A model generated the notes under the pieces. The model searched no databases and had not been told where the DNA came from. It saw nothing but the letters and a program-made list of their open reading frames with translations. Positions 15,321 through 42,831 of a stretch of DNA of 64,000 bases are shown piece by piece. The stretch lies in assembly GCA_021734025.1 (NCBI GenBank), contig JAIPJS010000007.1:28441-92440 (forward strand), written 5' to 3'. Source of the stretch: Fidelibacterota bacterium (lineage in GTDB: Bacteria > Fidelibacterota > JAANXI01). The position numbers and the translations under genes are program-made. Position 1 is the stretch's first letter, and every line of letters starts with the position of its first letter.

Positions 15321-15529
15321 CTTCAGTGCTAGAGTGTTCAAGTGTTTTGGTGTTCGAGTTATTTCTTGATCTTACCCGTAATTTTAACTCTGTGGTCATC
15401 CGTTGTTTCTGCGTTCACCGACTTGTCGGGGACTGCGTGCTATTTTGCCGTTTTCACCTTGCCATTTTCCCGGATTTTCCCTATTTCTGTTTCCTGAATT
15501 TTCCACGCATTTAACAACTGAGAGAGACT
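15321..15529. repeat. Intergenic word-repeat spacer: GTGCTAGA-GTGTTCAA-GTGTTTTG-GTGTTCGA array, conserved motif CTGCGTTCA...TGTCGGGGACTGCGTGCTATTTT, and ATTTTCC word array
   Basis: Shares the GTGTTNAA octamer family with 37633-37769. The 23-nt motif recurs at 25174-25196. Confidence 0.4.
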
Positions 15530-18702: not shown

Positions 18703-21700
18703 ATGGATCAACAACAGTTAGAACAGTTCCAGCGTAAAGATGTCCGCATACTATTTGTGGCTGTCGCCATAGCTCTGGTTTCCATTGTGGTCACCTGGGT
18801 CTATTTCGACGACGCATTTCCTGAGGCAAGTATCCGATTTGAGGTCGATAAAGAGGCGTCGGAGACTATCGGGCAGCAATTTCTCGAAACGCTGGGCTTT
18901 ACAATATCTCCCTATAAACATGCTTCGATTTTCGATTACGATAACCAGGCCAAAATCTATTTGGAGCGTACCCAGGGACTGGAAGAGACCAACGACTTGC
19001 TTTCCGGGTCTATACGAATCTGGCGGTGGAATCATCGCTGGTATCAGTCCAAAGAAAAGGAAGAATTTCAGGTTGCCGTCAGCCCGCGGGGTGCGATTAT
19101 ACGGTACGACCATGTGTTACCGGAAGATGCCGGAGACGCGCATCTGAGTGAGCGGGAGGCCCGTGCACTGGCTGAAGAGACGATGACCTCAACGCTGAGC
19201 AGATCGCTGACGAATTTGACCTTTTTGGAGCACGCCTCCGAAAAACTGCCGAACCGAACGGATCATACCTTTACCTGGCGACGTACCGATCTCATTTCTG
19301 GTGACTCAAATGCCGATTACCGATACGAAGTCACCATCAAGGGAGATGAATTCGGGGGATACCGGGAGTACCTGAAAGTCCCGGAGGCATGGTCGAGAGA
19401 ATACCAGCAGCTTCGATCGGCAAATAACACCACCGGACAGGTGGCGTCGTTCTTTTTATTATTGACCGTCCTCGTAATGCTCGTGGTCTTAATCCAGAAG
19501 TCCCGCCTTGGCGACATCAAATGGAAAACCGGCCTGAAATTCGGCGTGGTGGCGTTTGTGCTCATGCTGGCCAGCCAGCTGAATTCCCTGCCGATCACGC
19601 TATACAATTATTCCACAACCGATGCATACGGTGATTTTCTCACACAGGAGATCCTGCTCAGTCTGTTACAGGCACTTTTGGCTGGCGGTGGGATATTCTT
19701 CCTGACTGCGGCGGCCGAACCACTCTACCGGGAGCGCTACGGTGATAAACTCTCTGTAAGCAAGGCCTTCACCCTTCGCGGTATCAAAACGAAAAAATTC
19801 TTCATCGCTATCGTCGTCGGACTGGTGCTGACCTGTTTCTTTATGGCGTACCAGACGGTATTCTACCTCATATCTGCAAATCTCGGCGCCTGGTCACCGG
19901 CAGATATTCCGTATTCGGAGCTGTTGAACACGGCAATCCCCTGGATCTTTGTCCTGCTGATGGGATTTTTTCCCGCTGTATCAGAAGAATTTATCTCCCG
20001 GATGTTTTCCATCCCATTTCTGGAAAAATATTTAAAGGTCCGCTGGCTGGCGGTGCTTATTCCGGCGCTCATCTGGGGGTTCGGACACGCCGCTTACCCG
20101 AATCAGCCATTTTATATCCGCGGGCTGGAGGTCGGTGTGGCCGGCGTCATTATCGGATATGTAATGCTCCGATTCGGTATTGTCGCTGCGCTCATCTGGC
20201 ACTATACCGTCGATGCCCTTTATACGGCATTCCTCCTGTTCAGAAGCGGCGATCCGTACTTTATCGCCTCTGGCGCCATCTCCACCGGGATCTTCCTGAT
20301 TCCGTTGGTCATAGCAGGAATTTTTTATCTTCGTAACGGCGGATTCCTGCCGTCACAATCGCTGACAAACCAGGACGAAGGATCGGCCCCACCCAGACCA
20401 CCCAGTGAGCCAAAACAATTCGAAATACGGTATAACAAACTCTCGTATCGCAAAATCGGCATCGGAATTGTCGCCGGGTTAATTCTGTTTTCCGGTATTT
20501 TTCTGTCCAGCAAGAGCCCCACCGATTTCGTGAACGTAAAAATCAGCAAACAGGAAATTATCGAGGACGGACACCAGTGGCTCAAGTCCCGTACCGATTC
20601 GGCTGAGGCCTTCCGGCGAGCCGTAACCATGTCCTCAGGAAATCGCGCCCAGGTGTTGAAGTATCTTCTGGAGAATACCACCGTCGATTCTGCACAGATG
20701 GTGCTGGAGGATCTCCTCTATCCCGAGTACTGGCGGATTCGTTATTTCCACCCGCTGGAAAAGGAAGAGTACCGGCTGCATTACCACCCGGATACCGGCG
20801 AGTTGCTGGCGTTTCAGCACATTGTCTCAGAATCGACACCGGGCGATTCGCTTACGGAACTGGAGGCGCGGGATCGGGCATTTGCCTGGCTTGTTTCCAA
20901 TGATGTGGATACGAGTATGTACACGATCCGTAGCGTGGAGCAAAACGCCCGGCCAAATCGGCTGGACTACGAAATAACCTTCGAGGGGCGCGATTCGTTT
21001 TGGGCCAATATCGGGCAGGGAAAAGCACTCTTACGGATGTCCGTCACCGGCGGTGAAGTCGGTAAATTTATCCGGGATTATAAACTGCCGGAAGAGTGGC
21101 TCCGAACCCGGACAGCGCAAACACTGGGGCGGACGTTCCATAACATCGGCCGGATCGTGGTGCTGATACTTTTTGGCATCAGCGGCATTGTACTGCTCAT
21201 TGTCAAACTCAGAAATACGGACTCTTTTCAGTGGCGGCCAACAATTGTTATCGGAATTATCGTCGCTCTCCTGGTGGTGCTGACTCAGCTGAACCGCTGG
21301 AGCGTACTGGTGAGTGAATATACCACGACTATACCGTGGTCTCAGTTTCAGATCGGACTGGTTATTTCGCTGATTCTGGCAGGGATCGTGTACGGGGGGA
21401 TAATTCTGCTTGGTACGGCCCTGGCCCGTTTGTACTACCCCGGGAGCCTCCTGGCGTGGAAGGCGCCGGAACGGTATGTGTTTGCCAGAGATTCCCTGTT
21501 CACGGTGCTGATCGCGCTTTTGGGATTTGTTGGGTTGACCGAAATTCAATCCTGGATAAAACTCCAGTTTCCGGCACTGGCACTTTTTTCGACGGACACT
21601 ATTCCGACGTTTCTGAGCTCAACGATACCGGCATTCGGTGCCATTGGCAGCGCATTCACCCAGGGGTTATTGTATGCAGTAGGACTTGGACTATTCACCA

Positions 21701-22056
21701 TCATCTGGAATAAATATTTTAACCACGGATTGCTACGTTTCCTGTTGGTGGTGTTGGTTTTCCTCGCACTGGTGCCACCCCGGATGTTGACGTGGAGCGA
21801 ATGGGGGCTACAAGCACTGTTAACGCTGCTCCCACTTCTGTGGAGTGGCGCAATCTGGTGGTATTATATGCGCGATAATTACCTCTCCTATCTCATGATT
21901 CCCCTCTATTTGCTGGGACTAAGATTCGGATATGAACTCTACATGCAGAATGGTTCGGCCTATATCATTCATGGAATAGTGGTGTTTGCGATATTTTCGA
22001 TACTGTGGTTCTGGACACTTGCTGACGCCCTCAGGCACCGGGATGAAAACGGGTAG
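18703..22056 (+). CDS. Large internally duplicated membrane protein with CPBP (CAAX protease/Abi) intramembrane glutamic endopeptidase domain
   Basis: CPBP motifs EEFISR (EExxxR) and WGFGHAAY (FxxxH). Two repeats of [TM anchor - soluble PepSY-like segment (…LSEREARALAEE… / …LTELEARDRAFAW…) - polytopic TM block]. Confidence 0.6.
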   Translation: MDQQQLEQFQRKDVRILFVAVAIALVSIVVTWVYFDDAFPEASIRFEVDKEASETIGQQFLETLGFTISPYKHASIFDYDNQAKIYLERTQGLEETNDLLSGSIRIWRWNHRWYQSKEKEEFQVAVSPRGAIIRYDHVLPEDAGDAHLSEREARALAEETMTSTLSRSLTNLTFLEHASEKLPNRTDHTFTWRRTDLISGDSNADYRYEVTIKGDEFGGYREYLKVPEAWSREYQQLRSANNTTGQVASFFLLLTVLVMLVVLIQKSRLGDIKWKTGLKFGVVAFVLMLASQLNSLPITLYNYSTTDAYGDFLTQEILLSLLQALLAGGGIFFLTAAAEPLYRERYGDKLSVSKAFTLRGIKTKKFFIAIVVGLVLTCFFMAYQTVFYLISANLGAWSPADIPYSELLNTAIPWIFVLLMGFFPAVSEEFISRMFSIPFLEKYLKVRWLAVLIPALIWGFGHAAYPNQPFYIRGLEVGVAGVIIGYVMLRFGIVAALIWHYTVDALYTAFLLFRSGDPYFIASGAISTGIFLIPLVIAGIFYLRNGGFLPSQSLTNQDEGSAPPRPPSEPKQFEIRYNKLSYRKIGIGIVAGLILFSGIFLSSKSPTDFVNVKISKQEIIEDGHQWLKSRTDSAEAFRRAVTMSSGNRAQVLKYLLENTTVDSAQMVLEDLLYPEYWRIRYFHPLEKEEYRLHYHPDTGELLAFQHIVSESTPGDSLTELEARDRAFAWLVSNDVDTSMYTIRSVEQNARPNRLDYEITFEGRDSFWANIGQGKALLRMSVTGGEVGKFIRDYKLPEEWLRTRTAQTLGRTFHNIGRIVVLILFGISGIVLLIVKLRNTDSFQWRPTIVIGIIVALLVVLTQLNRWSVLVSEYTTTIPWSQFQIGLVISLILAGIVYGGIILLGTALARLYYPGSLLAWKAPERYVFARDSLFTVLIALLGFVGLTEIQSWIKLQFPALALFSTDTIPTFLSSTIPAFGAIGSAFTQGLLYAVGLGLFTIIWNKYFNHGLLRFLLVVLVFLALVPPRMLTWSEWGLQALLTLLPLLWSGAIWWYYMRDNYLSYLMIPLYLLGLRFGYELYMQNGSAYIIHGIVVFAIFSILWFWTLADALRHRDENG

Positions 22057-22270: not shown

Positions 22271-23170
22271 GTGAATTGGTTGAATAAACTGATTGTTGGT
22301 ATGATGCCCCTGGCGCCGAATTTCCTGATAGGCCAGGTGGCAAAACGCTATATGGCCGGAGAGACGCTGGAGGATGGAATCCAGCAGGTCTATGATCTGA
22401 ATAATCGCGGTTTTCTCGGAACAATGGATGTACTCGGTGAGAGCATCACGAATAAAGCGGAGACCGAAAAACCGTTGCGACTATACAAGGAGTTAATCCG
22501 GGAGTTGGGGCAGCACCCGGAGATCCGCACCGGGATTTCGGTGAAACTGACCCAGCTGGGATTGAGTATCGATCCGGAGTTCTGCTGGGAAAATTTTCAT
22601 CAGATTATGGAGCTGGGCCGGGAGAGCGATCTCTTCATCCGAATAGATATGGAAGATTCCAGCGTCACCGAGGATACGCTACAAATCGTGGAACGGGCGC
22701 ATGCGGAATACAAAAAAATCGGAGCCGTCATTCAGGCCTATCTTCACCGCTCAGCGGAAGACATGCATCGGCTGCTGGAGCAGGATATCAACGTCCGGCT
22801 CTGCAAGGGGATTTATAAGGAACCCCCGTCAATCGCATTCCAGGGAAAAGAAGAGGTTCGACAAAACTTCATTAAACTCGGGAAGATCTATCTGGACAAT
22901 GGTGGATATATCGGGCTTGCCACCCATGATGAGTTTTTGATCGATCATTTCCGGACCTATATCGATAATAAAGATATTTCTGAGGATAAATACGAATACC
23001 AGGCATTGTTAGGAGTGCCGGTCGAGCATATCCTCGAGCCGCTGGTGGATGAAGGGAAAACCGTTCGGATTTACGTACCGTTCGGCGAGGATTGGTACGC
23101 ATACAGTTCCCGCCGCCTAAAGGAAAATCCCGACATTGCCGGATACGTGGTGAAGGACTTTTTTAAGTGA
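22271..23170 (+). CDS. Proline dehydrogenase (PRODH family)
   Basis: About 300 aa with conserved blocks MDVLGE, IRIDMEDS, VRLCKGIYKE, GLATHDE, LLGV. GTG start. Confidence 0.8.
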   Translation: MNWLNKLIVGMMPLAPNFLIGQVAKRYMAGETLEDGIQQVYDLNNRGFLGTMDVLGESITNKAETEKPLRLYKELIRELGQHPEIRTGISVKLTQLGLSIDPEFCWENFHQIMELGRESDLFIRIDMEDSSVTEDTLQIVERAHAEYKKIGAVIQAYLHRSAEDMHRLLEQDINVRLCKGIYKEPPSIAFQGKEEVRQNFIKLGKIYLDNGGYIGLATHDEFLIDHFRTYIDNKDISEDKYEYQALLGVPVEHILEPLVDEGKTVRIYVPFGEDWYAYSSRRLKENPDIAGYVVKDFFK

Positions 23171-23550
23171 TGAAACCGGTAACGGGGTATAAGGTATAGG
23201 GGTATAAGGGTATAGAGAGTAGGGTTTTTCTTAATCTTCCCATAGGGATCCCTTTGGGATAATCATAATCTTACTCTTACTCGATTCTACCTTGAAAAGC
23301 TGAATGGAAATGGGAGAAAGGTGCAGGGAGAAGGGAGAACGGAACAGATTGAATATCCAATTTTCTAGTTCACAACACAATAGGAGAAAGTTGTTGGTAG
23401 TAACCGCTTCAGCGGTTTTTCGTTTTGAATGAAGAGCATAGAATGAAAACAACGAACAAAAGCGCGGCTAAACCAGTCGTGAGCTTGGTCGAACGAGCCG
23501 CGACTACCAACGATAATACCATAACTTAAACTCTATAACACCGGAGTAAC
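23171..23550. repeat. Mosaic intergenic repeat element, copy B (complete): GGTATAAGG array, TTAATCTT, palindrome cccataGGGATCCCtttggg, TACTCTTACTCGATTCTACCTTGAAAAGC, GGAGAAGGG words, hairpin aaccgcTTCAgcggtt, hairpin cgcggct...agccgcg + GACTACCAAC, TAACAC words
   Basis: Approximately 85% identical over about 150 nt to 1-150. Shares modules with 13046-13357. Confidence 0.6.
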
Positions 23551-24807
23551 ATGCGTGATCCCATCCTAACCCCCACATTTTTCGAACGCAATCGAGAGAA
23601 GTTCATCGCCAGGATGGAAGAGCAGAGCATTGCTGTCTTCCATGCAGCGACGCCGGTCGTAAACAGCGTGGACCAGTTCCATCAATTCCGGCAGTCCAGC
23701 GACTTCTTTTATTTTACCGGACTGGAAAAGCCGGGTTGTATCCTGATGATGCATCCGGAGGATGCCAAAGGAAAGACGACAACATTGTTTATTCCGCAAC
23801 CGGACCCGTCCAAAGAGGTCTGGGAAGGCACCATGCTGGACAAGGAGACCGCCGAAGAAATCAGTGGTATCGACGCCAAATACATCCAATGGGAAAAAAG
23901 TTTTGAAGATACGTTCATCCACGCTCAGCGGGACAGGGAGGTACTCTACGCGGATTACGATGACCTGGGGTTCAAATATGGGACGTCAAAAAATGTCGCC
24001 TTTGTCGGGAAAGTCCGCAAATCTCTCCCGGCGCTGGATATCGTAAAGGTGGGTAAAATCACTCACGATCTCCGTCGGATTAAGCAGCCGGAAGAGATCC
24101 AGCTGATCGAGCAGGCCATAGAAATCACTGGGAAGGCGCTGGAAGCTATCTGGAAACGGTTATCTCCGGGAGTCATGGAATATGAGCTGGAAGCGGAACT
24201 AGCCTATCATTGCATCGCAAACAACGCCCGCCGGTATGCGTACGAGCCGATTATCGCGTCAGGGATTAACGCGGCTACACTCCACTACATCGACAACTCC
24301 AAACAGGTAAATGATGGCGAACTGCTCCTGACTGACGTAGGAGCAGAGTACTCCCACTACTGTGCAGATATCACGAGAACAGTTCCGGTGAACGGTACTT
24401 TTACCGATCGGCAACGGGAGATCTATGAAGCCGTATTATCGGTTGAAAAGACAATCATTGAATCGGTGAAGCCTGGCGTGAAGATGAAGGAACTAAACGC
24501 GGAGGCCAAAGATATGCTTGGCGATCGGTTAATGGATTTGGAACTCATCGGTGATAAGGAGGAGACCGGGAAATATTATATGCACTCCATTGGCCATTTC
24601 CTGGGCTTGGATACTCATGACGTAGGCAGCACCAAGCCACCGCTGGAGCCGGGCAATATACTCACTATTGAGCCGGGGATTTATGTCCAGGAAGAACAAC
24701 TCGGTGTTCGTATCGAGGACGACGTACTTGTTACCGAAGACGGTTGCCGTGTACTGTCTGAAGACATCCCCAAAGATGTGGAGGCGGTTGAGTCACAGGC
24801 AGGATAA
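23551..24807 (+). CDS. pepP: Xaa-Pro aminopeptidase (M24B)
   Basis: Metal ligands in the context DVGAEYSHYCADITRT, HSIGHFLGLDTHD, ILTIEPGIY and VRIEDDVLVT. Confidence 0.85.
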   Translation: MRDPILTPTFFERNREKFIARMEEQSIAVFHAATPVVNSVDQFHQFRQSSDFFYFTGLEKPGCILMMHPEDAKGKTTTLFIPQPDPSKEVWEGTMLDKETAEEISGIDAKYIQWEKSFEDTFIHAQRDREVLYADYDDLGFKYGTSKNVAFVGKVRKSLPALDIVKVGKITHDLRRIKQPEEIQLIEQAIEITGKALEAIWKRLSPGVMEYELEAELAYHCIANNARRYAYEPIIASGINAATLHYIDNSKQVNDGELLLTDVGAEYSHYCADITRTVPVNGTFTDRQREIYEAVLSVEKTIIESVKPGVKMKELNAEAKDMLGDRLMDLELIGDKEETGKYYMHSIGHFLGLDTHDVGSTKPPLEPGNILTIEPGIYVQEEQLGVRIEDDVLVTEDGCRVLSEDIPKDVEAVESQAG

Positions 24808-25203: not shown

Positions 25204-25725
25204 TTATTCTTCACCCTCGCCGGCAGCCGGAGCGCCCTGACGTTGTCCAAGTTCCTTGTCCAGCATGTACAAGCCGCTTTTGTCATCACCGATGATGTTC
25301 AGTTTGTCAAGAATGCCCTTAAACAATGTTTCCTCTTCCACCTGCTCGTCCAGATACCAATGCATAAAGTTATAGGTGCTGTAGTCCTTCTCTTCCAGGG
25401 AGACATCCACAATTTCGTGAATAGCTTTGGTGTTTTGCCTTTCCTGCTCCAGGGCATTCTCAAAAGTCGAGCCGAACGATTCAAATTTCACCGGCGGCTT
25501 TTCAATCTCAGGCGCAACGGCATGTCCGTCCATGTCGTTCACGTAGTGGAAAATCCGCATGCCGTGTTCCCGCTCTTCATTGGACTGTGCGACAAAGAAG
25601 TGGGCAGCGCCTTCGTAGCCCTGGGTATCGCACCAGGACGCCAGCGCGAGATAATAATGCGAAGCATAAAATTCCTTTGCGATTTGATCATTGAGCAACG
25701 CTTCAATTTTATCAGAAATCATCAA
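25204..25725 (-). CDS. ftn: Ferritin (non-haem, Ftn-type)
   Basis: Ferroxidase-centre residues in FYASHYYLALASW, SNEEREHGMRIF and EQE. Confidence 0.8.
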   Translation of the reverse strand: MMISDKIEALLNDQIAKEFYASHYYLALASWCDTQGYEGAAHFFVAQSNEEREHGMRIFHYVNDMDGHAVAPEIEKPPVKFESFGSTFENALEQERQNTKAIHEIVDVSLEEKDYSTYNFMHWYLDEQVEEETLFKGILDKLNIIGDDKSGLYMLDKELGQRQGAPAAGEGEE

Positions 25726-25830: not shown

Positions 25831-28800
25831 TCAGCCATTCTCTCCGGCGAGCCGTGCCATCTGCAGCAAATAAAACCGGAGCAGTGTCTGTTCCTCCTGG
25901 TCCAGCGCCTGCTCTTCAATTTTGACCAGGCGCTCCACGTCCCGGAGCGCGCGGATTACATCCACCGGTACCTCGGAAACGTTTTCCGGGATCTGGGTGA
26001 GATATTGCACCACGGTGTGTAAAAATTGTCGCATGGAGTCGTCCTGCACATTTTTCAGCAGATCGGTCACCTGTGAGCCCAGACGGACCGCTTGAGTGGG
26101 ATCGCTGGTAAACCGGGATCCACCGGCGTCCTCGTGCTGGGTCAGTGTCTGGATGGCATGTGCCAGCTCCACAAATCGTTCCACCTGCTCGCGGATCGGT
26201 TCGCCAACCAGGTTCCATGTTTTCGCGCGCCATTCCCTGATACGGCCTGGCATCCGGAGCAGGTCTTCCATGTGAACCTGCCACTTTCCGTTGGAGCGCC
26301 CGGCTGATTTCCTCTTTGGAATAAGTGATTCCAGAGAAGTGTTGAACAGGTCAGGCTGGAGAAGTACGGCGAGATCCGGGCGGAAGAACTGGAGGAGTTC
26401 CAGATTAAAGCCGTTCCCGGTGAAAAATTCATCCGGATCGAGTCCCTGACGCCGTAACAACTCTTTTTGCAGCGGTCTGATATACTGCTGCATGGCCGCG
26501 TAATCCTCATGCAGAGCGGAGAATGCCGAATTGCTGGCCGGAAAGAGTGGCTCCATCTGGCCGATGTATTTGAGTTCGGTATCCTGATAAATTCGGAGCG
26601 TGTGAAGAATATCGTACACCGGCAGTTGCGGGAGGATATGTTTCCGGATTTGCGCCAGTCCCTCGTTGTCACTTGTGCGGGAGTCCTGGAATTCCCGGAG
26701 TGCCCGGAAGAGTCCGGTAGTCAGCTGATTAATGCCCAGTACCATAGTCTGGGAACGATTGTGCCCGATAGCACGGAGCAGGCTGCCGTGTTGCGAAAGC
26801 GGGAGGGTTTGAGCAATCTTTTGAACGATCTGCTGTCCCACGTTTTCGTCGCTGTCACGGCTGGGACGAACCACCGGGCGATCCCTGAGTGAGGGCGTGG
26901 TTCGCGCGATGAAATAGGAGATTACGTGAATGCCGACCACATCTTCCGGCCGTCCGTACAGGATCTGCCGGAAGTTATTGGTCATGAGATCCGTTAATTC
27001 CTCGTACACCGGATTCTGGTGGCCCCGCGTCAGCATCTCCAGATCCTGGGCGCCGCGTTCTTTGAATTCCAGGCGGGTATTGACGAGTGGCTCGGAGGCA
27101 CGCGCCAGTTTTTCTTCGTATGACTGCTGGGATTTCGTCACGTGGTGAAAGAGCTCGATTCGCTGGTTATTGGTCAGTGACCGCAGCCGTTCAAATACAT
27201 TACTTTGGAACGTCCGAAACTCGCCACCGGCCCAGACACCCCGGAGTGGACTCCGCGCATACGCGAGACTCCGGCGCCCGGCTTCCGAGAGGTTGCGTTT
27301 GAGCTGTAGCGCATCCGGGCGCGATATCTCAGTTGATGGCAATCCGGCATTGCCGTCGAAATAGCCACCCTGGCGTTGCATCGGTTCGCCGCTGCCCAGT
27401 TTCATCCGGATGTTCCCGACCAGGCCGTGGTTTGTAAGCCAGCGCATGGCGCGGTGCTTGGCCTCCTTGTACAGCTCGGCTCCGGCCAATTGGCTCATCT
27501 GCTGGCTCAGATCCGACCCGGCCACGAACAGCTCGCAGACCATCTCGCTGAATCGCTGAATTTGAGACTGGTCGAGCTTCCGGCTGTGTCCGGCGTAATC
27601 CCACACGCTGTCCAGATACGACTCCAGATTGTGCACTGTATCCACATCCTCGAAAAGCGGCACCACCTTAATTCGCGGAAGGTCGAGTCCGGGATTGTCC
27701 CGCAGGACTTCATCGCGACGGGACCGGAGCTTTCGTTCCAAAGATATGAACGCCTCCGGTTCGTCGGACATGCTGATCTGCAACGCCATCACCAGGCCGG
27801 GATGCCCGTACTTCCCGGCGATCTCGTTGATTTCGGTGATGTTGTGCACCGTGGCATCGATGGCAAACTGGTCCTGTGCCAGGATCATTTTTTGGTGAAT
27901 GCGCGGGGTTAACACGAAGCGTTTCAGGATATCCCGGTATGTACCGGCCTTAAGAGCCACCGCCGGATCCTCGAGGTGTTGCTCCAATACGTCGAGATTT
28001 TTCCGTAGCGTCTTCCGCAATCGCTGGTTCAGCGCAAAATAGTATTCCAGGTTTTCCCGGCGCTGATCCCGGAGTTTACGCATCTTGCGCTCTAACCGAT
28101 CATTATGTTGCCAGAGCGCCCTGACCGGATCCCTGGCCAGCCGGAGTCGCATTCCGAGTTTCCGGAGTTTGCCCGGTTGCACGCCGAACGGTAACACCTG
28201 CTGGTAGCGCTTTTCCAACTGATTGGTCAGCGATGTGATTTCATTCAGCAGGTCCCAGAATTCGCGCTTACTGGCATCCAGCCTCCGGATGTCATCCAGG
28301 AGTTCTGTGGAAATTTCTATGGTTTTATCCCGTTCCGAAAGAGATTGTAATATCCCCGAAAGTTGGGAAACGTTCTCCAGCAGGGCGGCCGCCGCCAGAC
28401 GGTGTCCCTGTCCCGATGGCCGGGTACTGCCGTCCCAGTCACCCCAGAAGGAGAGCAACAGCGGCATATCCAGGTTATACCGGAGCCGGGCATACTCCTC
28501 AGTGCCGACCATCATGCGCAGATCGTTCACCAGTTCGCTCATCTCCTCCCTGGAAAGCAGCGGCACATTTGTGCCCAGATATTCTTCGATGAGTTCGTCC
28601 GAAATTTCGTCCGGTCGGTGCTCAGGAATCCGCTCCCCGTTGAGTAGACTTTGAAACAGTTTGTTCGCCAGTATATCCACCTTCAGCGAGTTCATCTGCG
28701 TGGGATGGACGGTCCGGTCGAACATCCGATTCCTGAAATTTTCTTCTTTGGAATCCAGAGATGTCGGGATTAACTCACGTTCGAGTTGTTTGAGAACGGA

Positions 28801-31461
28801 TTCCTTATTCCGACTGGTTGTTTGTGACACCAGCGATTGGGCCATCTCCATTCTGTCTTTGAATTGTGTCGTCAGCGTTTCAAGTCGCTCCGGGAGATGA
28901 GACCGGGAAAAAATAGCCGCGTACCGCTCGGTATCGATTTCTCTGGAAAATTTCCGAAGCTCTCCGGCTATTTTTTCTTTGGAAAGCGTGGCGAGTCTCG
29001 CGGATAGTTCATTCCAGCGGTTTGCAGCATGATCGAAATGATTGGAACCGGGAGATTTCCGAACCGGCGGCGGAAGCGGTTCCCTGCTATAATTGGCGGC
29101 TTCTTCGCTGATAAGCCGGTTGAGGTCGATCAGTACCCGCCGGGCTTTATGCCGGAGTTCTTCCGCAGGATCAGCGCCGCCCAGGGTGAGGCGGAAGCTC
29201 TTGCGCGCCAGATCGAACCCTTCGGATGTTCTCGCAAAAGTGGTGAGCGGAACCAGGCCGATACCGCGGGTGGCCAGACCGATACCCAGCCAGTCCAGCG
29301 AGATGCCCGCGGGCAATTCGTCGATGGTGAGGTGCGGGTACATGGCGCCCTGCGGTGCACGGATACGAATGCCAAACGGATTCCGTTCTTCCGGCAGCGC
29401 TTCATGAGCATCCAACAGCGCCTGGAGGCGATCGTGTAAAATAGTATTCCTCATTTGCCAGAATTGACGTATATCTTCCTCGTGATTCCGGTAAAACAGG
29501 GAAGCGATGAGCACGGCAAATGTGTTCGGTACGATGCCGGCATTCATTGTGCTAAACCGCGCGAGAATCTCTTTGTCAGGGATATGTGCTACGGCCAACC
29601 GCGCACCGGCAAAGCAGTCGGTTTTGGAAAGGGAGTGAACGGTTATCAGGTTCCGGAGCTGGCTCGCCCGGATATGACCGCTCCGTTTAAGATCCTTCGC
29701 CAGGGCACGCATCGTTGGCGGACCGTTGAGAGATTCCATCGGGCCAAGATTTTCGTAAGCCAGGTCGTCAATCACGGTGATATCGTGGCTGAGTAGCCAC
29801 CGGAGCAGAAGTTTGACTTCTGAGGATTCGAATACCCTGCCGCTGGCGTTATGCGGATTGTTAAGGACAAATGCGCCGTACTCCCGCCATTCCGGATCAG
29901 CTTCCAGTTTTCCTCTGATATGATCGATGATGGCGCGGGCATCCAATGTCAGATTTTCACCCAGAGATACCGCCTCCACAGAGGGGAAGCAGTGCTCGTA
30001 CGTCCAGCTCAGGTCCGGTACCACGGCTTCACGAATTCCGCAGTGGAATCCCAGGAGACTCAACGCTGTCCTCGCAGAGCCGCTGACGACAGCGGCTGAT
30101 TCGGATTCGTATTCCGGATGATGCCGTAAGAACTGACTCAGCAGACTTTCGGTGATCTCTCCGGCGCTGAAACCGGGGTTACCGTGAACATATTTTTCAA
30201 CGATTTCATGTCGATCCATTCCCATGAGCGGATCGGAAATACCTGCATCCTCCGGGAGTACGGAGCGTCCCAAACGATCGCTGGTATCAGCCAGCCGCTC
30301 AACAAGCGATTCCGCCTTTGCCGCTCGACTTTCTACTATGTCTTGAATCCTGCTACCAAATCGTTCTGCCACTTCTGCTGTATATTCAAATTCTGTGATC
30401 GATGACGGATCAGCGACTTGCTTTTGACTATTTTCCTCTGATTCAGGTCCTCCGGAATCTCCTGAAAAAGCTCGTTCAATCTGTGTGGTGAGGAGGACGA
30501 TTTCCGCTCCGGAGGGCGTGCCCTTGAGCTGGAAGTGAATGGTCTCGAACAGTTTCACAAATTCCGCGTAGCCGGCGACGATGTTGAGAGAATCCGCGGT
30601 TATGGAAGAATGAATGGCAGATGGAGAGATGAACCGCAGCACCTGGTTCAGCATACCCGCTTCTCTGGCCAAAGAATGATGATTCAGCGCATCGTTCATC
30701 TCGATGAAAAACAGAGGATAGTCGAGGCTCATCCGGCGAAGTTCCCGGCGGACGCTTTCGCTATGAATCCTGAATAGCACCAGAAAGTGCGGTGATTCCG
30801 GAAGTGAGTTAAAGTGTGCAGAGAGAGTATCGAGGAGTTTTAACTCATCCGCTGGCGTTTGCGGGAATACCAGATTATCAAAGCTTGTCAGATGTTTCGG
30901 TATGGTATTGCCATGGGCAAATATGTACGCTGGCGTCTGGATGAGTGTGCGCGAAAGCGCATGAAACAGCACCCGCATATTTTCCTGTTGCCCACCGGCG
31001 CTGAATACGATTTCCCGGGGTTCGGATTCTCCGCCCAGACCGTAATCCAGTCCTTCTCGCTGGTGGTCCTCAAGCCAGCCCCGGACCAGTTCGGCGAGCC
31101 GGTTGGGTTTTTTTCCGGAGTAGCCACCTCTGGGGATATATTGGACGCTCTGTTCCATCGCCTCATACAGAAGCCGGAGTGTGGATTCATCGGTCTCTTC
31201 CCACAGAGTATTTTCTAGTGATCCCCTGAGCGCATCACCGTTCTGATGCCGGACATTTTTCGGTAAACCGGACACCAATGAGGCATATATATCCAGAAGT
31301 CGGCTGTCGTATACCGGATGACCGATATGGAAATTGACCTTTTTCTCCGCCGGGACGGGCGCGTTTGCTGTGGTCTCACTGATATCCGAGACCTTGACGG
31401 CCTTGAGCGGCCGAAGGCGAAAATATTCCAACGAACCGGGTGTAGTGGATGGTTGGTTCAT
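25831..31461 (-). CDS. Giant 1876-aa multidomain protein: unknown N-terminal region, PLP-dependent aminotransferase (fold type I)-like domain, and C-terminal divergent PEP-carboxylase-like region
   Basis: Aminotransferase motifs NNPHNASG (NPxNPTG-like), IDDLAYENL (DxAY), HSLSKTDCFAGARLA (SxSKxxxxxGxRxG with Lys). PEPC-like blocks ISMSDEP (ISMA/T), KVVPLFEDVD (VPLFET), EMVCELFVAGSDLSQQ...LAGAELYKEA (MVMIGYSDSxKDxG...W.LYKAQ), HGLVGNIRMKLGSGEPMQRQGG (G-rich loop), GVWAGGEFRTFQSN (GGLRVTEQGE). Continuous ORF with no frameshift. Confidence 0.6.
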   Translation of the reverse strand: MNQPSTTPGSLEYFRLRPLKAVKVSDISETTANAPVPAEKKVNFHIGHPVYDSRLLDIYASLVSGLPKNVRHQNGDALRGSLENTLWEETDESTLRLLYEAMEQSVQYIPRGGYSGKKPNRLAELVRGWLEDHQREGLDYGLGGESEPREIVFSAGGQQENMRVLFHALSRTLIQTPAYIFAHGNTIPKHLTSFDNLVFPQTPADELKLLDTLSAHFNSLPESPHFLVLFRIHSESVRRELRRMSLDYPLFFIEMNDALNHHSLAREAGMLNQVLRFISPSAIHSSITADSLNIVAGYAEFVKLFETIHFQLKGTPSGAEIVLLTTQIERAFSGDSGGPESEENSQKQVADPSSITEFEYTAEVAERFGSRIQDIVESRAAKAESLVERLADTSDRLGRSVLPEDAGISDPLMGMDRHEIVEKYVHGNPGFSAGEITESLLSQFLRHHPEYESESAAVVSGSARTALSLLGFHCGIREAVVPDLSWTYEHCFPSVEAVSLGENLTLDARAIIDHIRGKLEADPEWREYGAFVLNNPHNASGRVFESSEVKLLLRWLLSHDITVIDDLAYENLGPMESLNGPPTMRALAKDLKRSGHIRASQLRNLITVHSLSKTDCFAGARLAVAHIPDKEILARFSTMNAGIVPNTFAVLIASLFYRNHEEDIRQFWQMRNTILHDRLQALLDAHEALPEERNPFGIRIRAPQGAMYPHLTIDELPAGISLDWLGIGLATRGIGLVPLTTFARTSEGFDLARKSFRLTLGGADPAEELRHKARRVLIDLNRLISEEAANYSREPLPPPVRKSPGSNHFDHAANRWNELSARLATLSKEKIAGELRKFSREIDTERYAAIFSRSHLPERLETLTTQFKDRMEMAQSLVSQTTSRNKESVLKQLERELIPTSLDSKEENFRNRMFDRTVHPTQMNSLKVDILANKLFQSLLNGERIPEHRPDEISDELIEEYLGTNVPLLSREEMSELVNDLRMMVGTEEYARLRYNLDMPLLLSFWGDWDGSTRPSGQGHRLAAAALLENVSQLSGILQSLSERDKTIEISTELLDDIRRLDASKREFWDLLNEITSLTNQLEKRYQQVLPFGVQPGKLRKLGMRLRLARDPVRALWQHNDRLERKMRKLRDQRRENLEYYFALNQRLRKTLRKNLDVLEQHLEDPAVALKAGTYRDILKRFVLTPRIHQKMILAQDQFAIDATVHNITEINEIAGKYGHPGLVMALQISMSDEPEAFISLERKLRSRRDEVLRDNPGLDLPRIKVVPLFEDVDTVHNLESYLDSVWDYAGHSRKLDQSQIQRFSEMVCELFVAGSDLSQQMSQLAGAELYKEAKHRAMRWLTNHGLVGNIRMKLGSGEPMQRQGGYFDGNAGLPSTEISRPDALQLKRNLSEAGRRSLAYARSPLRGVWAGGEFRTFQSNVFERLRSLTNNQRIELFHHVTKSQQSYEEKLARASEPLVNTRLEFKERGAQDLEMLTRGHQNPVYEELTDLMTNNFRQILYGRPEDVVGIHVISYFIARTTPSLRDRPVVRPSRDSDENVGQQIVQKIAQTLPLSQHGSLLRAIGHNRSQTMVLGINQLTTGLFRALREFQDSRTSDNEGLAQIRKHILPQLPVYDILHTLRIYQDTELKYIGQMEPLFPASNSAFSALHEDYAAMQQYIRPLQKELLRRQGLDPDEFFTGNGFNLELLQFFRPDLAVLLQPDLFNTSLESLIPKRKSAGRSNGKWQVHMEDLLRMPGRIREWRAKTWNLVGEPIREQVERFVELAHAIQTLTQHEDAGGSRFTSDPTQAVRLGSQVTDLLKNVQDDSMRQFLHTVVQYLTQIPENVSEVPVDVIRALRDVERLVKIEEQALDQEEQTLLRFYLLQMARLAGENG

Positions 31462-36327: not shown

Positions 36328-37632
36328 TCACACGTCCAGCAGCATCCTCGACGGAGCCTCGATGAGTTCCTTCACCCGCACCAGGAATTGCACGGAGTCC
36401 TTGCCGTCGATCAGGCGGTGATCATAGGACATCGCCACATACATCATCGGGCGGACAACCACTTCACCGTCGATGGCTACCGGACGATCTTCGATCTTAT
36501 GGAGGCCAAGGATGGCCGACTGCGGTGCGTTGATAATCGGTGTAGACATGAGTGATCCGAAGACGCCGCCGTTGGAAATGGTGAACGTACCGCCGCGCAT
36601 CTCTTCGATGTCCAATTTGTTGTTGCGCGCCCGATCCGCCAACTCGTTGACCTTCTGCTCAATCTGAGCAAACGAGAGTTTGTCTGCATTCCTTATGACC
36701 GGCACTACTAACCCACGATCAGTGGAGACGGCCATGGCGATGTCGGCGTATTTGTGGTAGACGATTTCGTTGCCGTCGATTTTGGCGTTCACCACCGGGA
36801 ACTCCTGCAGTGCCAGAGCGCACGCCCTGGTAAAAAACGACATAAAGCCGAGTCGCACGCCGTGTTTCTCCTCGAATTGCTCCTTGTGCTCGGCGCGCAC
36901 CTGTTTTACCGCCGACATGTCAACTTCATTGAAGGTCGTGAGCATGGCCGCGTCATTCTGGGCATTGACCAGGCGATCAGCGATAGTGCGGCGCAGCGTG
37001 GACATCCGCTTACGTTCCACTTCCCGCTCACCGGTGAACTGTTCAGGCCGGACAGCCTTTGATGCTGTTTCTTTGGCGGGCTTCGATTTCTTCTGAGTCT
37101 CTTTTTCCTCTGAAGGTTGTGCCTTTTCCGAATCTTTTACTGCGCGCTGTGCATCGGCCTTGGTAATTTTCCCGCCGATACCGGTACCCTTCACGCCGCT
37201 GGGATCGATCCCGGCCTCTTTCAGAACATTGGAGGCAACGGGTGAAACGCGGACTCCTTCAGAGGTCGGTTCTTCTGTCTCTTCCTCAGCTTCCTGTGGT
37301 TCCTCCTCAGGCTCTTTCGGTGATTCTTCTTCCGCCTCTTGAGGCTCCTCGGTTTTTTCTGGCTCAGGTTCTTCTTCGGCGGTGTCTTCGCCTTCTCCCT
37401 CCGTATCTATGACGGCGAGGACATCCCCGACTGAGACGGTGTCATCGGTCTGCGCCTTGATTTGGAGCGTACCCGCTTTATCCGAAGGGACCTCGAACGA
37501 GGCTTTGTCGGACTCGATCTCGCAGATCACATCGTCCACGTCTACATATTCGCCATCTTGCTTCAGCCACTCGGCTACTACGACTTCGCTGATGGATTCG
37601 CCAACTTCCGGTACCGTAATCTCGTGTTTCAT
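36328..37632 (-). CDS. sucB: Dihydrolipoyllysine-residue succinyltransferase (2-oxoglutarate dehydrogenase E2)
   Basis: Lipoyl domain ([14 protein letters not shown]). Acidic P/E-rich linker. Catalytic domain with DHRLIDG. Adjacent to sucA. Confidence 0.9.
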
Positions 37633-37769
37633 TCTTTACCAGTGTTTAAGTGTTGAAGTGTTAGAGTGTTCAAGTAGTTGCGTGTCATGTGCTCATAATT
37701 CTCATTCGATATTAAAGAGGTCCTGCATACTTTAACACCTGAACACTATAACACTCTAGCACTGTTTTA
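37633..37769. repeat. Inverted arrays of degenerate octamers between sucA and sucB: GTGTTTAA-GTGTTGAA-GTGTTAGA-GTGTTCAA ... TTAACAC-CTGAACAC-TATAACAC-TCTAGCAC
   Basis: The two arrays are reverse complements of each other around a ~60-nt unique core. Confidence 0.5.
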
Positions 37770-40559
37770 TTATGTTTTCTCCGCCACAACTTTCCCGTTG
37801 CCGTTCCCGGGGGCTTTCACCCCTTCGTTTTCGGTGTTGAACGCCCGGTTGATGATGCTCTCCTGTTCCTTTGCATGCTGCTTGTGAAATCCTGTGGCAG
37901 GGGAGGCGCTGTTCCGCCGGGCCACCAGGCCGAGCTCCACCAGATCAAACTTTCGACAAAGATAGGCCCACGCGCCCATATTTTCCGGCTCCTCCTGGAC
38001 CCAGATGTAGCGTTCGACATTCTTGTATTTGTCAAAGATTTTGGTGAGCTGCTTCTCCGGCAACGGATAGAGTTGCTCCATCCGGATTATTGCCACGTCG
38101 TTCCGGCTTTCTTCTTCCTGACGCTCCAGGAGATCGTAATAGACCTTACCCGAGCAGAGGAGCAGCGATTTTACTTCACTGGGATCGGCGAATTTGTCGT
38201 CGATGACTTCCTTGAAGCCGCCGGTTGTGAGGTCTTCCAATGGACTGATGCATTTCGGATGCCTCAGCAAACTTTTCGGGGTATACACAACAAGCGGAAT
38301 CCGGAAGGGATATGCCATATGTCGGCGGAGCATGTGGAACAGGTTCGCTGGCGTCGTGGGGTTAATTACCTGCCAATTGTTGTTCGCCGATAGTTCCAGG
38401 AAGCGCTCGATTCTCGCTGAAGAATGTTCGGGGCCCTGCCCCTCATATCCGTGGGGGAGATACAGTACCAAGCCGTTGGAGCGATTCCACTTGGCTTCCG
38501 AGGCGCTGATATATTGATCAACGATAATTTGTGCGCCGTTATAAAAGTCGCCGAACTGTGCCTCCCAGATAGTGAGCCCTTCAGGTGTGGCGCAGGCATA
38601 TCCGTATTCGAATCCCATAACGCCATACTCGTTGAGTGGCGAGTTATGAATCCGGAACGGCGCCTGGTCATCCGACAGGTTATTCAGCGGGACATAGCGT
38701 TCTTCGGCGTCCCGGCTCAACAATACGGCGTGACGATGTGAAAAGGTGCCACGCTCGGCATCCTGGCCGGTCAGCCGGATGGGGACATTTTCAGTTAACA
38801 ATGATGCATATGCCAATTGTTCAGCCAACGCCCAGTCGAGGGTTTTCTTCTCAGTCAGTCGTTCTTTTGCGGAGCCGTACAGTCGTTTAATTTTCCGGAA
38901 GAGATCCATGTCCTCCGGTACGGTAAAGATCTTTTCTCCCAGCGATAGAAGGGTAGACTCATCCACACCTGTCTCGGGGGAAGAAGTCAGTGACTTCTCC
39001 TGGGGACGCCGCTGATCTTCACAAGAGGAGAGTGCATCGTCCGTGAAGGGTGGACCAATCTGCTTGTCCTCTTTGGCCTCACTCAGATGCTCTTCCAGCA
39101 TCTGACGGAATTCCTCTTCCATCTCCTCGGCGATACCCTTCTCCACAGTACCGGCTTCCAGCAGCTTGTTGTTGTAGATTTCTCTGGGATCGGGATGCTG
39201 CTCTATGATTTCGTAGAGTTTCGGCTGGGTAAACCGGGGCTCGTCGGCTTCGTTGTGTCCGTATTTCCGGTAGCCCAGCAGATCGATAAATACATCCGTG
39301 TTGAACTTCTGGCGATATTCCATGGCCATCTGGATGGCGAACACTACGGCTTCGGCGTCATCGGCGTTCACGTGAAAGACCGGCGACAGTGTTACCTTAG
39401 CCACGTCCGTGCAATAGGTGCTGGAGCGGCCCTGGAGATAATTAGTGGTGAAGCCGACCTGGTTGTTAATTACCAGATGGATGGTGCCGCCAGTGCGGTA
39501 GCCGTCCAACAACGACATCTGGATGACTTCGTACACCACACCTTGTCCGGCGATGGCGGCGTCACCGTGAATGAGAATCGGGACTACTTTGTCGATATCA
39601 TCGTTAAACAGATTGTCAATCTTGGAGCGGGACATGCCTTCTACCACGGGATCAACGGATTCAAGGTGCGACGGATTCGGCGCCAGATTAATCCGGACTT
39701 CTTTGCCGGATTGCGTTGTGACATCGCTGGTATATCCCAGATGATATTTGACATCGCCCTCGAACACCGAATCCTGATAGGCTGCGCCTTCGAATTCGCT
39801 GAAGATCTCCTCGTACGATTTGTCCATGATATTAGCGAGCACGTTGAGCCGGCCGCGATGTGCCATTCCGAGGACAACCTCCTCCACGCCGAGTTCGGCG
39901 CCTTTTTCCAGCACCGCATCCAGCCCGGGAATCAGCGTTTCGCCACCGGACAGGGCAAATCGTTTTTGTCCCACATATTTGGTGTGGAGAAAGTTTTCGA
40001 AGACCACCGCCTGATTCAATTTGTGGAGAATCCGGCGTTTTTCTTCCGGTGCGAAGTCCGGCAGATTTCGGCTGGACTCCATCTTATCCTGGAGCCACTG
40101 GACTTTCTCCGGCTCCCGGATGAAGCGATACTCCGCGCCGATGGAACGGCAATAGGTGGTTTTGAGATGGTCGATGATTTCCCGGAGCGTGGCCGGGCCA
40201 ATGCCAATTTCGTGGCCGGCCTGAAAGGTGGTATCCAGATCCTCTTCGGTGAGGCCGAAATTTTCGATATCCAGGGTCGGGGAGTATTTCCGCCGCTCCC
40301 GGACCGGATTGGTCTTGGTGAACAGATGGCCCCGTCGACGGTAGCCGCTGATCAGGTTGAGCACCAGGCGTTCTTTTTCCGCCGCTTCCGGTATGTCGAG
40401 CTGCGTTTCGCCGCTCTGCTGGGCGAATTCATATCCGGCAAAGAAGTCCCGCCACTCCTCCCTGACCGAGTCGGGATCTTCCCGGTAATCGTCATAGAGC
40501 CCTTCGATATAGTCGGGATGGGCGTTATGCAAAAATGAAAAATCTTCTATATCACTCAT
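37770..40559 (-). CDS. sucA: 2-oxoglutarate dehydrogenase E1 component
   Basis: 929 aa. Signature LGYRKYGHNEADEP plus a TPP-binding region. Confidence 0.9.
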   Translation of the reverse strand: MSDIEDFSFLHNAHPDYIEGLYDDYREDPDSVREEWRDFFAGYEFAQQSGETQLDIPEAAEKERLVLNLISGYRRRGHLFTKTNPVRERRKYSPTLDIENFGLTEEDLDTTFQAGHEIGIGPATLREIIDHLKTTYCRSIGAEYRFIREPEKVQWLQDKMESSRNLPDFAPEEKRRILHKLNQAVVFENFLHTKYVGQKRFALSGGETLIPGLDAVLEKGAELGVEEVVLGMAHRGRLNVLANIMDKSYEEIFSEFEGAAYQDSVFEGDVKYHLGYTSDVTTQSGKEVRINLAPNPSHLESVDPVVEGMSRSKIDNLFNDDIDKVVPILIHGDAAIAGQGVVYEVIQMSLLDGYRTGGTIHLVINNQVGFTTNYLQGRSSTYCTDVAKVTLSPVFHVNADDAEAVVFAIQMAMEYRQKFNTDVFIDLLGYRKYGHNEADEPRFTQPKLYEIIEQHPDPREIYNNKLLEAGTVEKGIAEEMEEEFRQMLEEHLSEAKEDKQIGPPFTDDALSSCEDQRRPQEKSLTSSPETGVDESTLLSLGEKIFTVPEDMDLFRKIKRLYGSAKERLTEKKTLDWALAEQLAYASLLTENVPIRLTGQDAERGTFSHRHAVLLSRDAEERYVPLNNLSDDQAPFRIHNSPLNEYGVMGFEYGYACATPEGLTIWEAQFGDFYNGAQIIVDQYISASEAKWNRSNGLVLYLPHGYEGQGPEHSSARIERFLELSANNNWQVINPTTPANLFHMLRRHMAYPFRIPLVVYTPKSLLRHPKCISPLEDLTTGGFKEVIDDKFADPSEVKSLLLCSGKVYYDLLERQEEESRNDVAIIRMEQLYPLPEKQLTKIFDKYKNVERYIWVQEEPENMGAWAYLCRKFDLVELGLVARRNSASPATGFHKQHAKEQESIINRAFNTENEGVKAPGNGNGKVVAEKT

Positions 40560-40904
40560 GTGGTTTGTCCGATACCGTTTATGATAAGTATTGGGCTGCA
40601 GTGGGTATGGATTCGACTGAAACCGGGAAATTGGAACGGCTGATACCGGTGAATAGGGTGAATAATTGTTGCAGCCATCGATCTGGTTGTAAGTTCATTT
40701 AATCTGTCTTTATTATTGTTGCTGATGAAGCTAACTCTCCGGATCAATAAAGTCAATTCCTGAAGCCTATTGTTGCAGGGAAATGAGGCTCCCTATTGTT
40801 AATGGTCGCACCTGGGAAGGAGCTCCCGAGTCCACCTTAGCTTCGCAACCTCATTGCGAGGTGAACCCTTTGCGCCGGTCCACTTATTTCGTATAATCAA
40901 AAGG

Positions 40905-42486: not shown

Positions 42487-42831
42487 AGTTGTAAACGGCT
42501 TGCACCATCGCTGGGAGGATAAATCGCGGCGCAGCATTTAAAAAGTAGCCTAAAAATACAAGAAATACTTAATTTTATATTTAATAATTGCGTAATTCAC
42601 CGAAACTGATCCAACAAAATTTACATCCGTAAAGTTTTTTCAATTTGTATTTGAATTTCTAGGGGTACCGCCGTTATATTCGAAAACCTGACGAACCTGA
42701 TGGGTGCAAGACTGATCGATTACATATCGATTTCATAGGCACCCCGCCCTGAAAATTTGGCGGAAACACTATATTACATAGTGCGCCTCCCCGGGAGGCG
42801 GTGCTATATAGATGGAGAATTGATTGTGTCT

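Follow-up and report, generated by a model that had tools for sequence, protein, structure and literature searches.

In the 64,000-nucleotide stretch of a Fidelibacterota bacterium contig that we analysed (GenBank assembly GCA_021734025.1, contig JAIPJS010000007.1, positions 28,441 to 92,440; hereafter the window), a single giant gene encodes a protein of 1876 amino acids (aa). The protein is built of three modules, a probable pseudo-aminotransferase, an aminotransferase and a phosphoenolpyruvate carboxylase (PEPC)-like module, in this order. Its gene lies directly behind a gene for a membrane-anchored SPFH (flotillin/stomatin-like) protein. From conserved residues, predicted structures and gene order, we propose that the giant protein may be a membrane-tethered bifunctional PEP carboxylase/aspartate-type aminotransferase with an internal pseudo-subunit, a reading that we consider to have about an even chance of being right.

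The original prediction, made from the sequence of the window, described the gene as a single open reading frame (ORF) in which a fold-type-I pyridoxal 5'-phosphate (PLP)-dependent aminotransferase is fused with a highly divergent PEPC-like region. Our PF00155, Foldseek and profile-profile results support this description. The motifs quoted for the two regions were all found in the 1876-aa protein in the relative positions described for them. Those of the aminotransferase type are NNPHNASG (534-541), DDLAY (565-569) and SLSK (610-613), and those of the PEPC type are ISMS (1229-1232), VVPLFE (1266-1271), AGSDLSQQ (1314-1321), ELYKEA (1329-1334), KLGSGEPMQRQGG (1354-1366) and GGEFRTFQ (1412-1419). 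These motifs represent more than chance resemblance, since 120 homologues with an overall identity of 45-60% show little or no variation in them. Dense invariant residues were observed in each of the three modules. Conservation is highest in the C-terminal half, where identity is 49-67% compared to 40-54% in the first 800 aa. In Pfam and NCBIfam, PF00155 was the only match for the protein, whether it was scanned whole or as separate N- and C-terminal parts, and searches of PDB sequences with the single sequence and with the family profile returned aminotransferases only. The closest database entry was a 100% identical partial protein from a metagenome-assembled genome of Candidatus Marinimicrobia, named 'pyridoxal phosphate-dependent aminotransferase'. 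No membrane segment was found in the giant protein.

The aminotransferase domain (aa ~411-790) matched PF00155 over aa 440-771 with 49.3 bits (cut-off 19.7; E=5.5e-13). The match begins at model position 50, and the usual N-terminal segment of the family is missing. An AlphaFold2 model of residues 1-800 had a mean predicted local distance difference test score (pLDDT) of 87.0 and a predicted template modelling score (pTM) of 0.85. Foldseek matched this model with many class I aminotransferases (E ~1e-15, target-normalised TM-score 0.65-0.71), and hhalign aligned the domain with a canonical aminotransferase profile at 96.9% probability (E=1.9e-10). Residues W486, N538, D566, Y569, S610, S612, K613, R621 and R757 are invariant in 39 sequences and align with the PYW, NPxN, DExY, SxSK, GxR and C-terminal Arg motifs of the canonical profile. 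The Schiff-base lysine is K613, R621 is at the place of the phosphate-binding arginine and R757 at that of the alpha-carboxylate arginine, and every residue for PLP and the alpha-carboxylate is kept. The Pfam score, the fold match and the aligned motifs all agree with the earlier assignment of this region to aminotransferase fold type I.

The invariant R464 aligns with the lysine of the 'GAKQAL' motif in the canonical profile, so that the giant protein has an arginine at this position in place of the lysine. We take this lysine (Lys109 in pig aspartate aminotransferase numbering; GxKQAL) to bind the distal carboxylate of Asp or Glu in subgroup Ib aspartate aminotransferases. Since the PLP and carboxylate residues are invariant and R464 occupies the lysine position, the domain looks catalytically competent and suited to dicarboxylic substrates. 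As a separate observation, eight loci encode a canonical class I aminotransferase of 405 aa, sometimes in two copies, at a distance of a few kb downstream from the giant gene. It carries the GAKQ motif typical of subgroup Ib (L018:6781-9141, L063:8198-9415 and six further loci).

The N-terminal ~400 aa had been left unassigned. As far as database matches are concerned this still holds, as the N-terminal domain (aa 1-340) had no match in Pfam and its profile gave nothing credible among PDB sequences. We can now propose that it is probably a second aminotransferase large domain that has degenerated and has no Schiff-base lysine. In the AlphaFold2 model it forms an alpha/beta domain with elements at 151-155, 157-172, 178-183, 206-219, 225-229, 235-247, 250-254, 274-278, 292-297 and 299-312, and these strands and helices follow one another as in the aminotransferase large domain (456-460 through 630-640), at a steady offset of ~300-330 residues. 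When the domain was aligned by hhalign with the aminotransferase domain of the family itself and with a canonical aminotransferase profile, three weak matches, independent of one another and collinear, fell in register with the large-domain elements. They pair aa 152-171 with the 'S-G-A-K-Q-A-L' strand and helix (P=0.019), aa 194-253 with the NPxN-to-DExY region (P=0.05) and aa 286-309 with the GxRxGY strand and helix (P=0.14). There is no lysine at the position equivalent to the Schiff-base lysine. The domain has invariant motifs of its own, NFHIG(N/H)P (43-49), Y108-x-P-R-G-G, NDAPNHxSxAREA (256-268) and QLKGTP. Foldseek of the 1-800 model reports the true aminotransferase domain only and thus does not settle the fold of the N-terminal domain. 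Fold-type-I PLP enzymes are obligate dimers, and in the giant protein the N-terminal domain probably serves as the second subunit of an intramolecular pseudo-dimer. Since residues 1-800 were modelled as one rigid body with a pTM of 0.85, the two domains are predicted to pack against each other in a fixed manner.

For the C-terminal module, an AlphaFold2 model of aa 888-1876 (pLDDT 82.9, pTM 0.85) was compared with known structures by Foldseek, and all of the 50 best matches listed were PEPCs (E=1e-9 to 1e-7). Profile-profile alignment by hhalign to an archaeal-type PEPC profile of 11 sequences gave 83.8% probability and E=7.9e-6 over 439 columns, with the TPRI, PLxED, SD, glycine-loop, TFQS, RDR and RAI motifs common to both. 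Of the strongly conserved archaeal-type columns, 27 of 59 are identical in the family. A bacterial-type profile of 12 sequences, made from E. coli ppc and plasmid-borne ppc genes, aligned with P=6e-4 (aa 1229-1366 against E. coli 474-590, 117 columns). Here, the best matches of the flanking segments contained the collinear signatures TVHPT/TAHPT (H138) and LQKELLRR/LQAELLHR. With E. coli Ppc as a single sequence, the hhalign E-value was no better than 0.12. When 13 family members were compared with the two PEPC families of Pfam, three matched PF14010 weakly (best E=0.0086) and one matched PF00311 (E=6.1e-4). The family hidden Markov model (HMM) found no PEPC among PDB sequences.

The gap to known enzymes is bridged by P0257, a free-standing relative of 1038 aa. 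It matched the family with E=4.6e-22 in HMMER and with 99.2% probability in hhalign (E=9e-20, 658 columns), and it passes the PF14010 gathering score (32.8 bits, cut-off 25; E=3.6e-8). When P0257 was added to the family, the resulting profile had exactly one match among PDB sequences, 3odm_A (E=3.4e-4). Since the Foldseek result, the alignment to the archaeal-type profile, the bridging P0257 and the weak matches of single members agree, we regard the PEPC homology of the module as established, specifically to the archaeal-type branch. Profile searches thus confirmed the aminotransferase part of the original prediction directly by PF00155; its PEPC part had no direct Pfam match and was confirmed by these other routes.

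P0257, encoded at L097:6001-9117 (Logan SRR22387790), stands between archaeal-type PEPC and the fused module. It has the motifs TFHPSQ, VVPLFEDE, AGSDSSKR and KLGTGETLFRQMG, with TLG at its end. The neighbouring genes are Mur-ligase-like, ATP-grasp and MetRS genes, with no SPFH or aminotransferase gene. P0257 may represent a 'long' PEPC clade that gave rise to the fusion.

The residues H919, E1271, D1317 and R1363 align with E. coli H138, E506, D543 and R587, and all four are invariant. In E. coli PEPC, H138 is catalytic, E506 and D543 are the metal ligands, and R587 belongs to the mobile glycine loop. Further invariants of the module are WGDWDG (1006-1011), TPRIHQ (1185-1190), the glycine loop (1356-1366, including R1363), TFQS (1417-1420), R1526/R1528, R1563 and the C-terminal GENG. 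In the profile alignment, R1187 and H1189 of TPRIHQ correspond to the R396 strand and to the archaeal-type TPRI, and TFQS corresponds to TEQG of PEPC and to TFQS of the archaeal type. R1526 and R1528 (RDRP) fall on PEPC GSRP and archaeal-type RDR, R1563 (LRAI) on the arginine of PEPC LRAIPW and archaeal-type PRAI, and the terminal glycine on the terminal glycine. The catalytic motif set of the archaeal type (the His of QHPD, TPRI, PLxED, SD, the glycine-loop Arg, TFQS, RDR, RAI and the C-terminal Gly) is present and invariant as a whole. A placement of the PEPC 'LRAIPW' at aa 1403-1420 was rejected, as the profile alignment puts TFQS within that segment and RAI at 1563-1565.

The original prediction pointed out that several catalytic residues of PEPC are substituted. 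This is correct with respect to the bacterial and plant enzymes, as E. coli H579, R581 and K546 are not kept and are replaced by L1355, S1357 and Q1320. However, these positions are also non-basic in the archaeal-type enzyme 3ODM, which is active ('LGCGSLPFRGH', 'ARSDTAMSYG'), so the module matches the archaeal-type pattern, with its His, metal ligands and key Arg invariant. Since the substituted positions follow this pattern, a dead PEPC domain now appears less likely than was feared at first. In the profile alignment, the catalytic motifs are paired in the same order with those of archaeal-type PEPC. In the AlphaFold2 model, the motifs sit just after the predicted beta-strands 914-917, 1003-1008, 1182-1189, 1226-1230, 1265-1270, 1310-1313 and 1351-1355, at the C-terminal ends of the predicted barrel strands. 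The glycine loop (1357-1365) has a pLDDT <50, as expected of a mobile lid.

The giant gene was originally described as lying directly downstream of a flotillin gene and near a ferritin gene, and we found both as described. The stop codon of the SPFH gene stands 49 nucleotides before the start of the giant gene. We fetched 80 loci from different species, and all 73 that included upstream DNA, which come from several phyla, have the SPFH gene immediately before the giant gene in the same orientation. The identity of the SPFH proteins is 42-57%, and the distance between the end of the SPFH match and the giant gene is 2-503 nucleotides, mostly <120. The adjacency holds in a close relative of the window organism as well as in Ignavibacteriae, Bryobacterales and Caldithrix (L001-L004). 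Clustering of the flanking ORFs revealed no other conserved neighbour, the next commonest being OsmC (12/81 loci). The comparison of synteny thus leaves the upstream SPFH gene as the only constant neighbour, while the others vary.

A single membrane helix at the N-terminus and a coiled-coil tail characterise the SPFH protein. The hydrophobic stretch covers residues 1-19 (Kyte-Doolittle mean 2.69) and RIRR comes after it, so that, according to the positive-inside rule, the SPFH domain and the coiled coil are predicted to be cytoplasmic. It had no match in NCBIfam or among PDB sequences and is annotated as 'hypothetical protein' in the same lineage. PADLOC matched neither the SPFH gene nor the giant gene to a defence system. 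The coordinates of the features are collected in Table 1.

Table 1. Features of the giant gene and its immediate surroundings (positions in the window; residue numbers refer to the 1876-aa protein)
Feature	Position	Strand	Basis
Whole gene, 1876 aa	25831..31461	-	ATG start; ORF list and translation
N-terminal domain, aa 1-340	30442..31461	-	AlphaFold2 model and weak collinear hhalign matches
Linker aa 341-410, disordered, then long helix 355-401	30232..30441	-	pLDDT <50 at 337-361 and 395-405; low conservation
Class I aminotransferase domain, aa ~411-790	29092..30231	-	PF00155, Foldseek, hhalign
Variable helical linker, aa 791-900	28762..29091	-	Low conservation; modelled part (aa 888-900) helical
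PEPC-like module, aa ~901-1876	25834..28761	-	Complete archaeal-type PEPC fold with ~450 aa of helical insertions
TVHPTQ, catalytic-His motif with H919	28696..28713	-	PEPC TAHPTE / archaeal-type TQHPD; invariant in the family
VVPLFE, metal-ligand Glu E1271	27649..27666	-	Aligned to PEPC VAPLFE, archaeal-type IIPLVE
AGSDLSQQ, metal-ligand Asp D1317	27499..27522	-	Aligned to PEPC GYSDSAKD, archaeal-type ARSDTAMS
KLGSGEPMQRQGG, glycine-rich mobile loop with R1363	27364..27402	-	Aligned to FHGRGGSIGRGG, archaeal-type LGCGSLPFRGH
SPFH/Band_7 partner gene, 326 aa	31511..32491	-	PF01145, 33.6 bits (cut-off 23.6), E=5.2e-8
Ferritin gene, downstream of the giant gene	25204..25725	-	

In the scheme that we propose, the PEPC module, which has kept its metal site and mobile glycine loop along with the catalytic His and the phosphate-binding arginines, would carboxylate PEP with bicarbonate to give oxaloacetate, and the aminotransferase module would transaminate this unstable product to aspartate, probably with glutamate as the amino donor. 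The net reaction on one polypeptide would be PEP + HCO3- + Glu -> Asp + 2-oxoglutarate + Pi (inorganic phosphate). The N-terminal domain would pair with the aminotransferase module and replace the second subunit of a fold-type-I enzyme. With such an internal pseudo-subunit, a 'dimeric' aminotransferase could be joined to an oligomeric PEPC and no cross-linking would result. The single-pass SPFH protein, encoded in the same two-gene operon, probably serves to tether the enzyme to the membrane or to organise it there. We infer the substrates and the coupling of the two reactions; the PEP-to-aspartate channel suggested in the original prediction is somewhat better supported now by R464. A more far-reaching proposal is that the family constitutes a fifth class of PEPC, one that converts PEP to aspartate in a single chain, with a pseudo-subunit and within an SPFH membrane metabolon. 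We put this forward tentatively, with the chances somewhat against it.

Several points weigh against the proposed bifunctional enzyme. The window protein matched neither PF00311 nor PF14010, even at E<=10, and the residue mapping of its C-terminal half comes from profile alignments and not from structural superposition. The archaeal-type FRQLM is changed to FAIDT and PPE to NQL, and E74 and P78 (archaeal-type PEPC numbering) are changed as well. The module has ~450 extra residues and the family-specific invariant motifs WGDWDGSxRPSGQGH and HNDRLE, and its chemistry could therefore have shifted. Aspartate inhibits known PEPCs. A PEPC fused to an aspartate-forming domain would thus be mechanistically awkward, unless the allosteric site was lost. 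The fold assignment of the N-terminal domain leans on weak matches (P = 0.019-0.14). Finally, contact between the active sites of the modules, or with the SPFH protein, is something that we infer.

Some of these points would also fit a neo-functionalised barrel, which would still bind a metal and a phospho-enol or 2-oxo acid and would catalyse another reaction with an end product other than aspartate. This could be the carboxylation or decarboxylation of another substrate, or the hydrolysis or transfer of oxaloacetate or PEP, and the aminotransferase would act on the product. Such a shift would agree with the extent of the insertions and with the family-specific invariant motifs, which have no counterpart in PEPC. 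It would also agree with the changes in FRQLM and PPE and with the number of archaeal-type columns that are kept, which is just 27/59. The exclusive linkage to SPFH is unknown among housekeeping PEPCs. Moreover, Melioribacter roseus is reported to have both Pyc and Pck, so that the need for a further anaplerotic route is not obvious there. However, the residues that define a PEPC are all invariant (the His, the Glu/Asp metal pair, the glycine-loop Arg, the RDR and RAI arginines and TFQS), and an arginine at the dicarboxylate-recognition position of the aminotransferase fits oxaloacetate and aspartate. We consider such a change of reaction possible, though less likely than the bifunctional enzyme.

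A non-catalytic PEPC-like module seems improbable to us. It would be an allosteric sensor or scaffold for e.g. PEP, aspartate or malate, and would regulate the aminotransferase or build a large SPFH-bound assembly. A role of this kind would be in line with the missing direct Pfam match of the window protein to PEPC, with the long helical insertions and coiled-coil-like segments, and with an SPFH scaffold as the partner. The protein also holds one pseudo-enzyme domain already, at its N-terminus. However, dead domains normally lose their catalytic residues, whereas here the invariants concentrate on the catalytic motifs at the barrel strand ends, including the metal ligands and the His, and the C-terminal half exceeds the N-terminal part in conservation.

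Homologues of the giant protein are widespread. A search of 5.8 billion proteins yielded at least 300 homologues with a fixed architecture. Among the 120 best, 119 are full length (1848-1904 aa) and align over 99-100% of the query, and the full-length homologues come from contigs that are independent of one another and span many samples and phyla. When each GTDB species was represented by one genome, 323 genomes contained relatives. Among the phyla are Ignavibacteriota (with Melioribacter and Rosettibacter primus, the latter in culture), Calditrichota (Caldithrix abyssi; the record used is a metagenome-assembled genome), KSB1, Acidobacteriota (Bryobacteraceae and Solibacteraceae) and Marinimicrobia. 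In an exhaustive HMMER search of 1.84 billion representatives, the C-terminal profile found 242 proteins at E<=0.001, and all but one of the best 150 of these 242 belong to the giant family or are fragments of it.

One protein at first resembled a split version of the fusion. P0148 (L098:412-3396) is a 994-aa 'C-terminal module only' call near the start of its contig, with an unrelated ORF upstream. We rejected it as a stand-alone or split C-terminal protein, since its 90% cluster contains a 1891-aa protein; P0148 is most likely a misassembly or truncation and no natural split. The concern that the ORF could be an artefact, arising from a chimeric assembly or from two genes read through as one, found no other support and is refuted by full-length homologues this widespread, so that we give it virtually no chance.

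In the window, sucAB (36328-40694) and gltBD (42739-49121) lie 5-18 kb from the giant gene. The original prediction took the gltBD/TCA neighbourhood as metabolic support for the fusion. The comparison of loci deprives this argument of its weight, as the ferritin, gltBD and sucAB neighbours are confined to the window's own lineage, and a functional link to any of the three was rejected on these grounds.

The variable neighbours are often stress-related. Besides ferritin (in the window and in L001) and the OsmC gene already mentioned, we observed PspC in 8 loci and a MarR regulator in 9 loci, DJ-1/PfpI in Caldithrix, and pirin and YceI in Bryobacterales (examples outside the window: L039:8315-8746, L055:355-1056 and the flanks of L003 and L004). 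None of them is conserved across phyla, and they could reflect coincidence or a stress-linked role. In Ignavibacteriae bacterium HGW-3 (L002:12574-13637), the giant gene is followed by two short ORFs with glutamate-synthase domains, one of 220 aa (PF01645) that overlaps the end of the giant gene and one of 80 aa (GXGXG). Both may be pieces of gltB, or else small proteins that resemble GltB.

Further away in the window, a protein of 1117 aa (18703-22056, + strand) has an Rce1-like CAAX protease domain together with a weak match to YcdB/YcdC repeats. The close relative L001 has kept this protein as well, and it is unusually large for its family. A cluster at 22271-24807 (+) and 15515-18127 (+) comprises genes for proline dehydrogenase, aminopeptidase P (M24) and a HEAT-repeat M1 aminopeptidase, and suggests that genes around the locus serve the catabolism of peptides and proline in this Marinimicrobia lineage.

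When compared to known systems, the fused module shares its catalytic motifs with archaeal-type PEPC (PF14010; Clostridium perfringens, PDB 3ODM). It differs in its length of ~975 aa with ~450 aa of insertions, in its position behind two aminotransferase-type domains and in falling below Pfam detection. From the bacterial and plant PEPCs (PF00311; E. coli Ppc, maize, Flaveria C4) it keeps the equivalents of H138, E506, D543 and R587, but has L, S and Q in place of E. coli H579, R581 and K546. A review of the PEP-pyruvate-oxaloacetate node recognises four types of PEPC, all of them free-standing and none listed with an aminotransferase fusion, and describes the archaeal type as a free-standing protein with a subunit of 55-60 kDa (PMC8100219). 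Since the giant protein fails both Pfam profile tests and departs from the archaeal type in size and architecture, we file it as a fused, enlarged variant that derives from the archaeal-type PEPC lineage and is a member of neither PEPC family in Pfam.

The aminotransferase domain resembles the subgroup Ib aspartate aminotransferases and other class I enzymes (Thermus thermophilus aspartate aminotransferase, MppQ and the kynurenine aminotransferase BNA3) in its PLP ligands, its alpha-carboxylate Arg and the basic residue at the GAKQ position. Unlike the subgroup Ib enzymes, it lacks the usual N-terminal segment, has Arg for Lys, is fused and is probably paired with an internal pseudo-domain. 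The two-step chemistry proposed here is the same as that of separate PEPC and aspartate aminotransferase acting in turn, in aspartate-forming C4 photosynthesis and in general anaplerosis. To our knowledge, the two enzymes are separate proteins in every described case.

The gene pair resembles the known SPFH-partner operons (stomatin-NfeD, HflK/C-FtsH, flotillin), in which the gene for a membrane-anchored SPFH protein is likewise accompanied by a dedicated partner. The partners in known SPFH operons are proteases or NfeD-type proteins, and we know of no description of a 1876-aa metabolic enzyme as a fixed SPFH partner. Full-text searches of the literature found no aminotransferase-PEPC fusion, no fused PEPC-like domain and no link of such a protein to SPFH, in accordance with the original statement that no description of the fusion was known. 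Two findings are new and go beyond that prediction, namely the conserved partnership with SPFH and the domain that is probably a pseudo-aminotransferase.

Few enzymes of carbon fixation and anaplerosis have been studied as well as PEPC. In the genome paper of M. roseus, Pyc, Pck and Mae are listed and a PEPC is not (PMC3534657); the giant protein would thus be an unrecognised PEPC homologue in this organism. Public annotations label the family just as 'PLP-dependent aminotransferase', and a PEPC homologue is therefore overlooked in metabolic reconstructions of these widespread lineages from sediments, hot springs and the ocean. Since cultured hosts exist (Melioribacter, Rosettibacter primus and Caldithrix abyssi), the predictions are directly testable.

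If active, the giant protein would be a case of substrate channelling found in nature, with unstable oxaloacetate as the intermediate, and its internal pseudo-subunit would solve the mismatch that arises when a dimeric enzyme is fused to a tetrameric one. The scaffold function of bacterial SPFH proteins is a long-standing question, and the strict pairing observed here offers a concrete candidate client. If the more far-reaching proposal of a fifth PEPC class holds, an SPFH scaffold would for the first time be seen to serve an enzyme of central metabolism exclusively, and a significant unannotated route for anaplerosis or dark CO2 fixation would exist in Ignavibacteriota, Calditrichota, Marinimicrobia and some Acidobacteriota.

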